Below are positions 5,406-26,659 of a stretch of 64,000 bases of DNA, in pieces (within the stretch, counting starts at the first letter, position 1; the number at the start of each line of letters is the position of its first letter). Position numbers and translations under genes: made by a program. The notes beneath the pieces are model-generated. The model saw only the letters and a program-made list of their open reading frames with translations. It was not told where the DNA came from and made no database searches. The stretch is from the IMG/VR virus record IMGVR_UViG_3300042197_003251, positions 1 through 64,000 of that record, one strand, 5' to 3'. The stretch is from a virus.

Positions 5406-6518
5406 CTAATCTTCTTTTACCTTATCCCAAAGTCTAACCGCCTTCCTAAAAAGTTCATCGGCTCTATCGTTAAATCTTTTTTTCCAGTATATGAAAAATT
5501 GTCTTGGGTTATTTCTTATTGAAGGACTTAATCCTCTAAAGTTATTTACAGTAACACCATTTTGTCTTAAAGATTCAGATATATAATTTAAGGCTTCGTT
5601 CCAATTTTCCAAATTTTCCGATACTTCTTGAGCCCTTTTTTGTGAATAAACCAAATCAAAAAAACTTTCAATTTTTGTAATTGAGTCTATCATATCATCA
5701 ACCGAAAAACTTTTTAAAAAATTAATTTCTTTCGATAGTTCAGTTTTTTCAAACTCTCGCATAAAGTCATCATAATCTTTAATACCCTTTCCTTTAAGTG
5801 TATAATAAAGTTGGGGAGCTCTTGCTTGTTGTTCAAATCTTAATGACAAATATAATCTTCGTAAAAATCCATTCCATTCATTATTAATATTACTCCTCAT
5901 AATTTGTTGGAGTGAATTATACGTAGACTCTTTTCCATATCCGACTTTACCTGTCGATTTATTTATTTTAAATAATTGATAAGCATGGAATACTTCATGT
6001 GAAACAACCGCCGATAATTCATTCCTAATTGATTCAAAATCTTTAGTTTGTGATTGTCTCATATGGATTGTAAATTCATATGTACTAATATCATAAACTT
6101 CCCCTTTGGTTTTTAATGTTCTAATTTTAAAATCTTTCGGAACAAAAATATGTGAAGCCTCAATCATCGGGGACTTGTATTTCTTATCATCAAAAAACTC
6201 ATCAGGTAATACTTTAACAACTACAAATATTTTGTTTCTATAAGTTGGAAACTTTCTCCATTCCTCTTTATCGTATTTCGGTGAGTTTTTCAGGTATTCC
6301 CAACTTTCTTTAGGGGAAATTTCAAAACTATACTCATAGCCCTCCAATTCTTGGAATTGAGGTTCGTTAAATTCAAGAACGTCTGGTGCTTGACTTTTAA
6401 TGTTATTTTCAATTACACTAATAATTAAATCAGTATAAATGTGAACGACCATATCAATGTCGTCTGGTACACCTAAAGCTTCGGTTAAAAGAAGTTTATT
6501 TACTTTTTTTAACTTCAT
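5406..6518 (-). CDS. hypothetical protein with HExxH (zincin-like) motif
   Basis: SHEVFHAYQ plus downstream E in RFEQQA; N-terminal LLTEA. Confidence 0.6.
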   Translation of the reverse strand: MKLKKVNKLLLTEALGVPDDIDMVVHIYTDLIISVIENNIKSQAPDVLEFNEPQFQELEGYEYSFEISPKESWEYLKNSPKYDKEEWRKFPTYRNKIFVVVKVLPDEFFDDKKYKSPMIEASHIFVPKDFKIRTLKTKGEVYDISTYEFTIHMRQSQTKDFESIRNELSAVVSHEVFHAYQLFKINKSTGKVGYGKESTYNSLQQIMRSNINNEWNGFLRRLYLSLRFEQQARAPQLYYTLKGKGIKDYDDFMREFEKTELSKEINFLKSFSVDDMIDSITKIESFFDLVYSQKRAQEVSENLENWNEALNYISESLRQNGVTVNNFRGLSPSIRNNPRQFFIYWKKRFNDRADELFRKAVRLWDKVKED

Positions 6519-6621
6519 TTTTCTTTTTTACAACAGGAAATTTATCTTGTATCTCCTTGTTTCTAGCCTCATCGGTTCTAATTACCAATTTTTTTGGAAA
6601 TTTTATTTCGGAAGATTTCAT
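6496..6621 (-). CDS. small basic protein (41 aa)
   Basis: MKSSEIKFPKKLVIRTDEARNKEIQDKFPVVKKKNEVKKSK; TATTTAT-N4-ATG upstream; overlaps start of next gene. Confidence 0.55.
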   Translation of the reverse strand: MKSSEIKFPKKLVIRTDEARNKEIQDKFPVVKKKNEVKKSK

Positions 6622-6642
6622 ATTGATAAATATATAATAATT

Positions 6643-7186
6643 CAAAAAAGAGTTGGCTTCTCTGTCCGTGTGGGATTATCACGAGCCAACCCTAAGGAGT
6701 AGTTTCCCATAATAGTATTTCTTCGGATATGACTCAAGAGAGTGAGTCCGTAGTAACCATCCACCGAAGACCTATACTCTCACGCCATCGTGCTTGTGGA
6801 TTTGGACATCCTTATCGGACCTCAAGCCTTACAATTAACGATTTGGCGTTACCCTCAGGACATCTTCGCCCTACCACCATAGTTACTTGGCAGTCCCACT
6901 CGGAAGTTAGAGTGTGTATTGTAGAATTGTCCAGTTTTTCTACAACTTGTGGATTACAACACGACCATTTAAAGTCCCTAATCCCCTAAATCCATAATGG
7001 GGAACCCATAATTTAAAGATTCACATAATACCTGACGGAACTTCCCCCTATCAGTTAACTCGTTTATTAGAGTACATATATGTTTCACTTTTGTGTTACC
7101 TCCCCCATAGCCTTGGAGCCTTCTTGCCAGGTTCACACACCATAACGAACAGGTACATTCGTTAATCGTGGGGTCTTTTAGTTTAT
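6643..7186 (-). ncRNA. candidate large structured non-coding RNA (~540 nt), family unassigned
   Basis: GC-enriched, no credible ORF, promoter TATATTTG at 7192-7199, many hairpins, long-range helix 7159-7169 with 6831-6841, terminal stem plus U-tract at 6644-6691. Confidence 0.7.
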
Positions 7187-7223
7187 GAATACAAATATAC
7201 GTTAGAATTTTAAATTTGTAAAA

Positions 7224-7625
7224 TTAATTTTGAGTTGGATTTAATAAATAAACCCAAGAATAATCAGAATATTCAACAGAAAAGAATATTTCATTATACT
7301 TGTTTGAATACAAATAAACAATACATTTTATATCATCATTATCCGAAGCATACCAATAAGAACCCTTTTCACACCCGTTCATATCATGTGAAGTTGGTTC
7401 CAAATAGTAGAATTGTTGTCTAATTGAATTAATTGTGATTTTTCTATCTTCAATAATAACAAAGACTTCATTTATGTTTTCAAACGGAGCGTACTTCATT
7501 TCACCAGTAGAATAATCTTTCTTTCCGAATGACATTCTTTCAGATTTAGTAACAACAACATCCTGCGATAAACAGGATGTTATTAAACTGACCAATATAA
7601 AAAGTGTGAGGAATATTTTTTTCAT
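7224..7625 (-). CDS. secreted hypothetical protein
   Basis: Signal peptide MKKIFLTLFILVSLITSCLSQ. Confidence 0.75.
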   Translation of the reverse strand: MKKIFLTLFILVSLITSCLSQDVVVTKSERMSFGKKDYSTGEMKYAPFENINEVFVIIEDRKITINSIRQQFYYLEPTSHDMNGCEKGSYWYASDNDDIKCIVYLYSNKYNEIFFSVEYSDYSWVYLLNPTQN

Positions 7626-7650: not shown

Positions 7651-8220
7651 TTAAATCAAAAATTTAATAACCTTTTCTTTAATTCCGCATTGTTTAATAC
7701 CTTCATTTGACCTTGGAACCAATACAAAATTGTCAAGTCCCCAATCATGTTTAAATTCAACACCATAAGAAATTCCAGTTTTACCCATATCAAGGTCATC
7801 AATTGCAACCCATTTTGTAACTTCAGGGTGTTCTTTTAACCATTGTTGAATCTCCAAACTTCTTGTACCTTCTAAGTCCCAATCCCGATGCCATGTAACC
7901 CTTTCACCATCAATCATATTGCCAGTAAAATCAATTGGTCTTTTGATAATTCCCTGACTTTCATAATAGTCACCCATTTCATTAACTGAAGCCCAACTTT
8001 TCCAATCTGAAGATACAACGATTTCAGCACCAGTCTTTTCCAAGATTTCGTTTAATACTTTGACCGCCCTTTTATTAAAGTTATCAAAACGAGCGTCAAC
8101 GGGCAAACTCATAATATCTTGAGATAATTTTCGTTTGGCTTTAGTTTGCTTTTTAAACCGCGAGCCCCATTCGGTTGATAAACAAATTACAGAGTCGTGG
8201 TCCAAAAATAATACGTTCAC
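7651..8220 (-). CDS. HAD-family phosphatase (Swiss Army Knife RNA-repair-like, HAD_SAK_2)
   Basis: VLFLDHDSVI, IVVSSDW, RSLEIQQWL, WVAIDD motifs. Confidence 0.85.
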   Translation of the reverse strand: MNVLFLDHDSVICLSTEWGSRFKKQTKAKRKLSQDIMSLPVDARFDNFNKRAVKVLNEILEKTGAEIVVSSDWKSWASVNEMGDYYESQGIIKRPIDFTGNMIDGERVTWHRDWDLEGTRSLEIQQWLKEHPEVTKWVAIDDLDMGKTGISYGVEFKHDWGLDNFVLVPRSNEGIKQCGIKEKVIKFLI

Positions 8221-25802: not shown

Positions 25803-26659
25803 GAAGCCTGAGATTACAGCTTTTATTGAGTACCTTTAGAGTCATTATTTTTTCTACTCTTATCCACAAGATTTTGTCTTGTATTACTCATCGCCAATTG
25901 GTTAGGCCAATCAATCCTTGACGATACAACTACTCTCTTACTACTCAGCTCTCTTTGAGAATGCCTTCCCAATTAATCCTTGCGAGATTAGAGGTTTTTC
26001 GTAAAAATACAGTTCAACTTGGGGTCTCACTATGCTCAGAACATCTCTAAGCTATGTGGGCGACTTCCGTTGTACCGTGATGGACACTTTTCCTTTAATT
26101 ATTTGTAATAATTTAAGTTTTGTGTCGTGGATGTGTCAGAGTAGTGGTCCACCGTAAGCTCCGTCTCCTTTTGGGCGACAGAATACTAAACTACTCCGTG
26201 AAATATCCCTATTTCCATACTCTCAGATTACTTCATAAAGTGACCTTGGTAGGTCATCCTTAGGGGTAGTAGCGACACCACTCGTTCTCTACCTTACCTT
26301 TCGGTTTTAAGTACCCTTTGGTATTGGGACCCGCAATTGTGTAGTTGGAGCTACATTTCTTGCTTGGTTCCTATGGGTTATTCTTGTTGGTGTTCCCACC
26401 TCAACCTGACAATCCACTTTGCCAAGTCACCTGACCACTTTCCCTACAGTGTTACCCTCGGTACTAAAGGTCTTGCGATATCCCACTTGTGTACTTGAGT
26501 TCAAATCCCCTTTCGGGTTTTTAAACCGCAACCTCCTCAACACGGGGGAAGTCACTTTATCCTACTTTCGTAGTTTATTTAAAGACCATACACGGCCCAT
26601 TATCGTTTATCAGTTATCATTATCCCGAAGGACTACTTTCACTGAATGGATAATCTAAC
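25803..26659 (-). ncRNA. GOLLD-like giant structured RNA (~860 nt)
   Basis: GC-enriched non-coding block next to a tRNA; GAAA, GCAA and UUCG-capped stems, repeated AGUA motifs; size and phage/tRNA context fit GOLLD; family assigned from memory. Confidence 0.7.

Follow-up and report, generated by a model that had tools for sequence, protein, structure and literature searches.

A multiply pseudoknotted RNA of uncultured freshwater jumbo phages, carried once per genome and usually among tRNA genes

The species 1 and species 2 stable RNAs of phage T4 (rnaC and rnaD) lie within the tRNA cluster of the phage and are released together with the tRNAs. They are about 120-140 nt long and their function is unknown. 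The RNA described here is 3-4 times larger and multiply knotted. It is encoded on the minus strand at positions 6645-7177 of a 64,000-nucleotide stretch of viral DNA (referred to as the window; positions 1 to 64,000 of the IMG/VR record IMGVR_UViG_3300042197_003251). The record has 81,017 bases and a CheckV completeness of 28%, and the RNA locus occurs only once in it. The sequence of the RNA is strongly conserved among its relatives, and about 16 of its helices, including four pseudoknots, covary. Uncultured freshwater jumbo phages carry the family once per genome, usually among tRNA genes. The locus is almost certainly a real structured RNA gene, and it very probably represents a new, not yet catalogued family within a known kind, namely the large ornate phage RNAs of tRNA regions.

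Two RNAs of this kind, GOLLD and ROOL, are described in the sections of Kretsch et al. used here (PMC12286853) as phage and prophage RNAs that are often found near tRNA islands, contain multiple pseudoknots, have no known function and form RNA-only cages. As far as those sections describe it, GOLLD resembles the new RNA in being a large phage-borne noncoding RNA that often lies beside tRNA genes and combines many pseudoknots with conserved and variable parts (PMC12286853). GOLLD also occurs in lake phages and in this very window. The two RNAs differ in length (about 400-540 nt for the new RNA and 800 nt for GOLLD), and the new RNA shows no similarity to the GOLLD model in sequence or structure. 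ROOL, according to the same sections, is of similar size (about 500-650 nt) and likewise has multiple pseudoknots and a phage or prophage setting near tRNA islands (PMC12286853). The new RNA gives no match to the ROOL model, has other helices and differs in habitat and hosts, being found in freshwater jumbo phages with a promoter-like site of the Bacteroidota type. At least one contact of ROOL that was first read as tertiary from covariation is reported there to be a kissing loop between copies (PMC12286853), and one knot of the new RNA could likewise be an inter-copy contact.

Searches with the covariance models of Rfam 15 separate the new RNA from these and other families. At gathering thresholds, the whole window contains GOLLD (RF02032, 300.2 bits, positions 25805-26198, minus strand) and three tRNAs; the GOLLD-like RNA that a first-pass annotation had proposed for this genome is thus a true GOLLD. 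When all 4227 families were compared with positions 6400-7400 using permissive filters and E values up to 10, the only match was a chance match to RUF1 (14.3 bits, E 6.5), and nothing overlapped the RNA in nine other members searched at E up to 1. The GOLLD model, for which membership would require at least 150 bits over its conserved 3' half, matched nowhere else in the window and gave no match of any strength between 6400 and 7400 at E values up to 10. The models of ROOL (RF03087), OLE, raiA and HEARO gave no match at the locus (E up to 10) or in the nine relatives (E up to 1), and those of RNase P RNA, tmRNA and group I and group II introns matched neither the window copy nor the nine relatives. 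The first-pass annotation had seen no tmRNA, RNase P or intron hallmarks in this region and had proposed a large structured RNA, possibly of a new class; both statements agree with these searches, in which no strong match removed the novelty, and the second also with the covariation over 50 members described below. GOLLD was detected in three of five other jumbo records that carry the RNA, as well as in the record of the window, whereas two of the five have the RNA without GOLLD. GOLLD and the new RNA are therefore separate genes. The family is not described in the full texts returned by a literature search or in the consulted portion of the preprint 10.64898/2026.10.21.760802, a scope that leaves subscription journals and supplementary motif lists outside.

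The region had been noted as a GC-enriched block without a credible open reading frame (ORF), and this is borne out. The GC content is 0.395-0.465 across 6600-6999 (0.39-0.47 for the block overall) compared with 0.25-0.30 in the coding flanks. The ORFs within the block are short, scattered and unconserved (86, 81 and 52 aa), and a Pfam search of the three gave zero matches. The longest stop-free stretch per member has a median of 72 aa over the 50 family members. The RNA is not a message.

Relatives of the RNA were sought by several routes. A blastn search of 50,697 GenBank phage records returned no match at E up to 0.01, and BLAST against three jumbo genomes returned only AT-rich promoter-like scraps. 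Relatives of the downstream 370-aa protein were not found in viral contigs, and this synteny route to homologues failed. Fifty-two loci were retrieved via the upstream HAD gene; in none of them did blastn or a single-sequence nhmmer search detect the RNA within 4 kb, and the other neighbours of the window copy were absent as well. Contigs from public runs (two metatranscriptome, one ambiguous and one DNA) are 80-95% identical to the window and span 6657-7179 and little else, the exceptions to this RNA-only cover being the DNA run X7 and the p189 gene. Positions that these contigs leave uncovered carry no weight, since the flanks of relatives differ, and runs sharing only a small part of the short words of the region were left out of account for the habitat. 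The contigs skip 7004/5-7089/90 and 6783-6848 and have about 10-13 different letters in each place; three conserved blocks and two inserts are therefore delimited. A 16-mer from the middle block retrieved 83 viral stretches, after which 35 of 143 loci held homologous sequence at 72-86% identity, and a second pattern, taken from the 5' block, retrieved 81 viral stretches. A profile of the first alignment recognized 70 further loci among 191 retrieved IMG/VR phage loci. Fifty-six of these 70 are full length and yield 44 distinct sequences, to which six more divergent ones (in the 3' end or the whole sequence) were added, giving an alignment set of 50 distinct RNAs of 406-538 nt. A model of the 3' domain matched once, and only once, in every one of five jumbo records (209-321 kb). 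In bacterial genomes, the 16-base pattern matched at least 120 stretches; the profile accepts none of the 120 listed, the best of which gives 14 bits over the seed itself, and this result covers only those listed matches and is not proof of absence from bacteria.

The conserved blocks of the family include the start AAGACCCCAC, GGCUAUGGGGGA (which was part of one retrieval pattern), CUGAGG, GUAACU and GGAUGGUUACUA, all invariant or nearly so in the 50 members including the window. About 100 positions are invariant across the family, many of them in loops and junctions, and the HAD protein shared among these phages is only 60-80% identical. This degree of conservation therefore points to a precise three-dimensional job. 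The segment at 6956-6960 (minus strand; RNA 218-222, where position 1 of the RNA is window position 7177 and RNA position i is window position 7178 - i) has two main states in the family, GUUGU and AAUAC. Its positions covary strongly among themselves (mutual information 0.65-0.9) and with no distant column, and no pairing accounts for the segment.

The fold was tested separately in two parts of the molecule. For the 5' and central domains, an alignment of 50 sequences (MAFFT) was evaluated over 75 pairs in 14 helices (3085 cells). Paired cells amount to 93.0%, compared with 37.8-45.6% when the 3' partners were slid by 1-3 columns. Both sides change in 43 of the 75 pairs (10-20 when slid), and the covariation score is 0.236 (0.039-0.067 when slid). 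In 500 shuffles the observed values were never reached, except that 93 of the shuffles attained the number of further pair types. In the 3' domain, 48 distinct rows were evaluated over 41 pairs in 7 helices; 91.3% of cells are paired (36.3-48.5% when slid), 36 of the 41 pairs change on both sides (14-23 when slid) and the covariation score is 0.657 (0.099-0.179 when slid). The prediction of RNAalifold for the whole alignment was used as the starting structure. In screens of every column against every other, lineage effects were overwhelming, and the results were used only to propose stacked helices.

Four covarying pseudoknots, none of which had been seen in the first-pass annotation, dominate the fold. 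In the window copy, all four (PKa, PKb, PKc and PKd) are perfectly complementary. Four of the six haplotypes of PKa are fully paired, AAUGU/ACAUU among them, and all five haplotypes of PKb are fully paired (GGAC/GUCC, GAAC/GUUC, AGAC/GUCU, GAUU/AAUC and GGAC/GUUC). A mini-hairpin UGUCC/GGGUA predicted by RNAalifold was dropped in favour of PKb, which changes on both sides. PKd has nine fully paired haplotypes. PKc and PKd were also tested without an alignment because MAFFT misregisters three small lineages near the 3' end. A run of at least five pairs was found for PKc in 46 of 50 members compared with 22.5% when the partner was shuffled, and for PKd in 42 of 50 members compared with 25.1%. 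The 3' terminal hairpin is a partner in both PKc and PKd and is thus doubly knotted. It is an integral part of the fold first, and a role as terminator is at most secondary.

Most of the helices proposed from the single sequence were recovered in the family. Seven covary (TAACGAA/TTCGTTA, TTGTAGAA/TTCTACAA, CACTC/GAGTG, TCCCC/GGGGA, TCTTCGG/CCGAAGA, GACTC/GAGTC and GTTGGCT/AGCCAAC). The proposed GGCG/CGCC pairing survives as 6845-6849 with 6782-6786, i.e., as helix Hg (95.3% paired), and was discarded as RNA 308-311/330-333, where 83.1% of cells are paired and one pair forms in only 26 of 49. A closure of the molecule by CCCCACG/CGTGGGG is not family-wide, as its 5' strand is invariant and its supposed partner forms part of the inner stem, which covaries, and of the loop in the 3' hairpin. 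The loop of Hb is palindromic and is not claimed as a dimerization site; only UUAA is constant, and it is absent in the two most divergent members. Three further contacts, listed in Table 1 as the candidate closing helix P1, GUGU/ACAC and the candidate tertiary loop pairing GUAACU/GGUUAC, would be compatible with pairing in all 50 members, a judgement drawn from complementarity since invariant columns cannot covary.

Two optional inserts, VR1 and VR2, decorate this core; the window copy is a long form that has both. The three stems of VR1 covary after realignment of 16 members with the major form, and its GGGGAAGUUC loop is constant. The VR1 stem at RNA 124-127/143-146 is 88.2% paired in the 50-member alignment. 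VR2, which lies within Hg, takes at least four forms in the family, and the form of the window is shared with only two other members (L089 and L121). In this form, an 11-bp pairing joins 7169-7159 near the 5' end to 6841-6831 inside VR2 and competes with the local 5' hairpin. This is the long-range ACGATTAACGA/TCGTTAATTGT helix of the first-pass annotation. It is present in the window and is retained in L121 with altered letters; in L089 the 11 bp are not retained and only short complementary runs are seen by eye. The insert that carries it occurs in three of 50 members and only 50.9% of cells are paired in its columns family-wide, and it does not belong to the core. It may be a real lineage-specific alternative pairing outside the family core. 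GCTTG/CAAGC, likewise proposed at first, also lies in this insert of three members. The 10-mer AAUCCACAAG occurs twice on the minus strand, at 6945-6954 with the 3' strand of PKa and at 6793-6802 in VR2, and the VR2 of the window also contains a sequence nearly identical to the 3' strand of H1. As judged from these repeats, the VR2 insert could compete for two core pairings, an arrangement seen only in the window and L089.

The genomic setting of the family is dominated by tRNA genes. A same-strand tRNA lies within 1 kb in 52 of 71 loci (aragorn). A tRNA is located within 120 nt downstream in 28 of 62 loci with enough flank, usually 3-9 nt past the hairpin, and in more than 20 loci it starts 3-13 nt past the end of the RNA. 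Upstream, nine of 67 loci have a tRNA whose end is at most 60 nt away, and in six of these the distance to the conserved start is 0-3 nt. The 3' hairpin of many relatives lacks a following U-run and is followed by a tRNA instead. The RNA is therefore probably released from a tRNA precursor in most phages. The window copy lies outside the tRNA array, its nearest same-strand tRNA being 4547 nt away; the initial description as a stand-alone RNA holds for this copy, which is the exception in the family. The downstream neighbours vary by locus and are mostly tRNAs, and a relative of the downstream 370-aa protein was found in one family locus only (L178), where it lies upstream of the RNA.

The tRNA arrays of the carrier phages are very large and in part unusual. 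Loci of at most 15 kb (L075, L108, L120, L171, L173 and others) contain up to 28 tRNA genes called by aragorn, some of them as 'tRNA-???' or 'tRNA-Pyl'. A conserved non-coding stretch of about 66 nt lies between the upstream tRNA and the start of the RNA in L080, L104, L128 and L146, and one of about 100 nt lies just upstream of the RNA in L075, L112, L156 and L173. These stretches of 65-100 nt may represent additional small RNAs encoded in the tRNA arrays. A freshwater-1 RNA (RF02979) was matched at 996-1056 of L156 (plus strand) with 61.9 bits, under the gathering score of 72, among tRNAs about 470 nt downstream of the new RNA. The complete 293,850-base record G007, to which the loci L178 and L109 belong, is the only one found to contain relatives of both the 370-aa and the 133-aa neighbours of the window RNA (42% and 38% identity, in a different order relative to the RNA), and may be the best complete stand-in for the phage of the window.

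The RNA had been credited with a promoter and a terminator of its own, bounded by TATATTTG at 7192-7199 (minus strand) and by a GTTGGCT/AGCCAAC stem with a U-tract. Both boundary elements are present; the stem at the 3' end has 9 bp and is followed by 6 U. A promoter-like site was also found (10 of 12 matches in a consensus scan), in a region where such sites are not enriched (7 observed and 5.7 expected). The 3' hairpin was not called by a terminator scan because its loop of 27 nt exceeds the scan maximum of 8, and it is an integral element of the fold after which a tRNA follows in many relatives. The TAnnTTTG box, which we take to be the Bacteroidota -7 consensus element, precedes the conserved start in three of 46 distinct upstream contexts (at 14 nt in the window and at 10-11 nt in L108 and L183). 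The contexts of L108 and L183 are tRNA-less, like that of the window. The coordinates of all these features are collected in Table 1.

Table 1. Positions of the RNA gene, its helices, pseudoknots, candidate contacts, inserts and neighbouring signals in the window (paired, share of cells paired; both sides, pairs in which both sides change)
Feature	Window positions	Strand	Remarks
RNA gene	6645..7177	-	533 nt, limits set by family conservation; from AAGACCCCAC to the U-run past the 3' hairpin
H1, 5' hairpin	7143..7164	-	RNA 14-20/29-35; 87.7% paired; 5/7 both sides
H2, hairpin with one bulge	7111..7131	-	RNA 47-51/62-67; 98.0% paired; 2/5 both sides
VR1, optional Y-shaped insert	7005..7089	-	in 20/50 members; conserved GGGGAAGUUC apical loop
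Ha, hairpin	6982..7003	-	RNA 175-179/192-196; 96.0% paired; 3/5 both sides
Hb, hairpin	6963..6976	-	RNA 202-205/212-215; 98.5% paired; 3/4 both sides; loop UUAA nearly invariant
Hc, 9-bp hairpin	6918..6946	-	RNA 232-240/252-260; 99.6% paired; 7/9 both sides
Hd, hairpin	6897..6914	-	RNA 264-268/277-281; 96.4% paired; 2/5 both sides
He, hairpin	6873..6894	-	RNA 284-290/299-305; 95.3% paired; 4/7 both sides; loop with invariant GUAACU
Hg	6849-6845/6786-6782	-	RNA 329-333/392-396; 95.3% paired; 4/5 both sides; encloses VR2
VR2, within Hg	6844-6787	-	at least four forms in the family; form of the window in 3/50 members (window, L089, L121)
Hh	6720..6770	-	RNA 408-414/452-458; 99.1% paired; 6/7 both sides; encloses invariant GGAUGGUUACUA and Hj
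Hj, hairpin	6748-6731	-	RNA 430-435/442-447; 98.6% paired; 6/6 both sides
3' terminal hairpin	6643..6693	-	outer and inner stem, then 6 U
3' hairpin, outer stem	6693-6685/6657-6649	-	RNA 485-493/521-529; 91.9% paired; 9/9 both sides
3' hairpin, inner stem	6683-6680/6670-6667	-	RNA 495-498/508-511; 90.9% paired; 4/4 both sides
PKa	6994-6990/6954-6950	-	Ha loop UGGAU with AUCCA (RNA 224-228); 99.2% paired; 4/5 both sides
PKb	6932-6929/6861-6858	-	Hc loop GGAC with GUCC (RNA 317-320); 100% paired; 4/4 both sides
PKc	6741-6737/6663-6659	-	UCUCU in the six-base loop of Hj with AGAGA in the 3'-hairpin internal loop; 90.0% paired; 5/5 both sides
PKd	6709-6705/6675-6671	-	linker UGGGA (RNA 469-473) with UCCCA in the 3'-hairpin apical loop; 87.9% paired; 5/5 both sides
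Candidate closing helix P1	7173-7169/7107-7103	-	CCCCA with UGGGG; 250/250 cells complementary, invariant
Candidate pairing GUGU/ACAC	7138-7135/7096-7093	-	200/200 cells complementary, invariant
Candidate tertiary loop pairing GUAACU/GGUUAC	6886-6881/6758-6753	-	300/300 cells complementary, invariant
TATATTTG box	7199-7192	-	ends 14 nt ahead of the conserved 5' end of the RNA
Promoter-like site	7222-7194	-	TTTACA (7222-7217), 17-nt spacer, TATATT; 10/12 matches
189-aa HAD-domain gene	7651-8220	-	PF18143, 'Swiss Army Knife' RNA-repair type, E 3.4e-21; 474 nt upstream

Taken as a whole, the best explanation of the locus is probably that it is a stand-alone gene of an uncatalogued jumbo-phage RNA family whose product works as a GOLLD/ROOL-like trans-acting particle. 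The pseudoknots tie the 5', central and 3' domains into one compact fold around which VR1 and VR2 are arranged. In most phages, the RNA would be co-transcribed with tRNAs and cut free by tRNA-processing enzymes, whereas the window copy appears to have departed from the tRNA block and to use its own promoter and an end formed by the hairpin and U-run. During infection, the folded RNA may then work in trans as a particle connected with tRNA and translation, through a rigid RNA architecture that possibly self-assembles by loop-loop contacts, and not as a message, guide or cis-regulator. The GOLLD/ROOL-like trans-acting mode itself is put forward tentatively, at somewhat less than even confidence, by analogy with those RNAs. 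A more specific extension, that this is a third unrelated large phage RNA class building an RNA-only quaternary assembly, with at least one 'pseudoknot' formed between copies and an action on phage tRNAs or ribosomes, is rather unlikely. PKc and PKd, which connect a loop or linker to the 3' hairpin, would be the obvious candidates for such an inter-copy contact.

Several observations weigh against this explanation or weaken its support. The GOLLD/ROOL-like mode is drawn by analogy from setting, size and knottedness alone. The folding energy of the RNA lies within the range of shuffled sequences on both strands (minus strand, z = -1.08, with 13 of 100 shuffles as stable; plus strand, z = -1.31), and thermodynamic stability was rejected as evidence for structure. 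The single sequence by itself is therefore no proof of a structured RNA, and the evidence for one is conservation and covariation, not stability. Because every member was retrieved by means of two exact motifs, invariance in or near these motifs is partly forced and distant members are missed. The members also fall into few lineages, and counts of changed cells therefore overstate the number of independent events, while many pairwise correlations are spurious. Some pairings performed poorly. In the 3' domain, the helix 3-7/64-68 has weak support (75.8% paired), and the VR1 stems as first drawn (S0 and S1) were only 33.8% and 51.3% paired on the full alignment and were replaced after the 16-member realignment. 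The VR1 loop GGAAGUU (7045-7039) and the Hd loop AACUUCC are 82.6% paired with both-side changes in none of seven pairs, and a kissing contact between VR1 and Hd, as suggested by this complementarity, is tentative. No copy was found with the 3'-domain model in three complete jumbo phages that have the neighbouring HAD gene, and the RNA is therefore dispensable for that kind of phage. Contigs of relatives reach depths of up to 42.6 and 22.8 in the metatranscriptome studies X17 and X19, and one 404-nt contig from public runs is a nearly complete short-form RNA. These RNA-library contigs are a hint of transcription; they come from relatives, from libraries that possibly contain DNA, and are assembled and hence without transcript ends or strand.

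Among the explanations considered, the GOLLD/ROOL-like particle ranks first, a protein-binding decoy second and a processing ribozyme third. A decoy or sponge RNA would bind a protein of the host or phage, as 6S or Y RNA does, and hold it back or divert it; the target could be an RNA-repair enzyme, a defence nuclease aimed at tRNAs or a component of the ribosome. The roughly 100 invariant positions, which include many in loops and junctions, are consistent with a fixed partner that recognizes them. In addition, among 42 family loci with enough flank, 11 have a same-strand homologue of the RNA-repair-type HAD gene of the window within 3 kb upstream, a loose but recurrent association. The same linkage also counts against a decoy, as it is loose, with no RNA near the HAD gene in the 52 HAD-retrieved loci; the gene and the RNA may both merely sit near tRNA blocks, and no protein is consistently adjacent. 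A decoy is thus improbable, and a ribozyme or RNA-processing cofactor that acts on the tRNA array transcript or on itself is clearly more so. In that case, the release of the RNA and the tRNAs would depend on the fold. Such an activity would suit both the tRNAs that end or start within a few nucleotides of the RNA and the compact, knotted invariant core, which resembles known ribozymes in these respects. However, the models of self-cleaving ribozymes, RNase P and introns give no match (E up to 10 in the window copy and up to 1 in the nine relatives), host RNase P and 3' processing enzymes suffice for release, and the window copy keeps the whole core without a same-strand tRNA within 4.5 kb. 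On this absence of a model match, the RNA is not a recognizable ribozyme or intron.

Two remaining explanations carry very little weight. A cis-acting leader or riboswitch-like element would serve the downstream genes at 6496-6645 and 5406-6518, with the alternation between the 5' hairpin and VR2 as its switch. The 11-bp pairing that competes with the 5' hairpin, and its retention with changed letters in L121, are what such a switch would predict, yet this VR2 form is confined to three of 50 members, the pairing is not kept family-wide, and the downstream neighbours are mostly tRNAs, the sole relative of the 370-aa protein lying on the other side of the RNA. Since the neighbours differ between loci, the RNA is not the leader of a fixed gene, and a cis-acting role is very improbable. 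Least credible of all is a decayed mobile element (a remnant of a group I or group II intron or a homing-endonuclease-associated RNA) or a divergent GOLLD or ROOL. The true GOLLD in the window lends it some plausibility, but neither an intron nor a HEARO, GOLLD or ROOL model matches and no exon halves flank the RNA. Decay does not agree with a fold that is complete and under strong purifying selection in 70 loci, nor does divergence from GOLLD agree with the coexistence of both RNAs in three of five genomes and the absence of GOLLD from the other two.

GOLLD, ROOL and OLE form unprecedented RNA-only assemblies whose roles are open, according to the sections of PMC12286853 used here. If the new RNA also builds an assembly of this type, phages with large tRNA sets would have repeatedly invented RNAs that form cages or lattices. 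Few natural RNAs of comparable size and complexity are known, and the new RNA would be a further unrelated and richly knotted class. It offers a compact target of about 400 nt for cryo-electron microscopy (cryo-EM) and RNA structure prediction. Cataloguing the family would stop these regions being annotated as gene-free gaps or spurious ORFs. The new RNA shares with GOLLD the niche of tRNA blocks in large phages, and often the genome as well; it provides a second handle on the roles of such RNAs.

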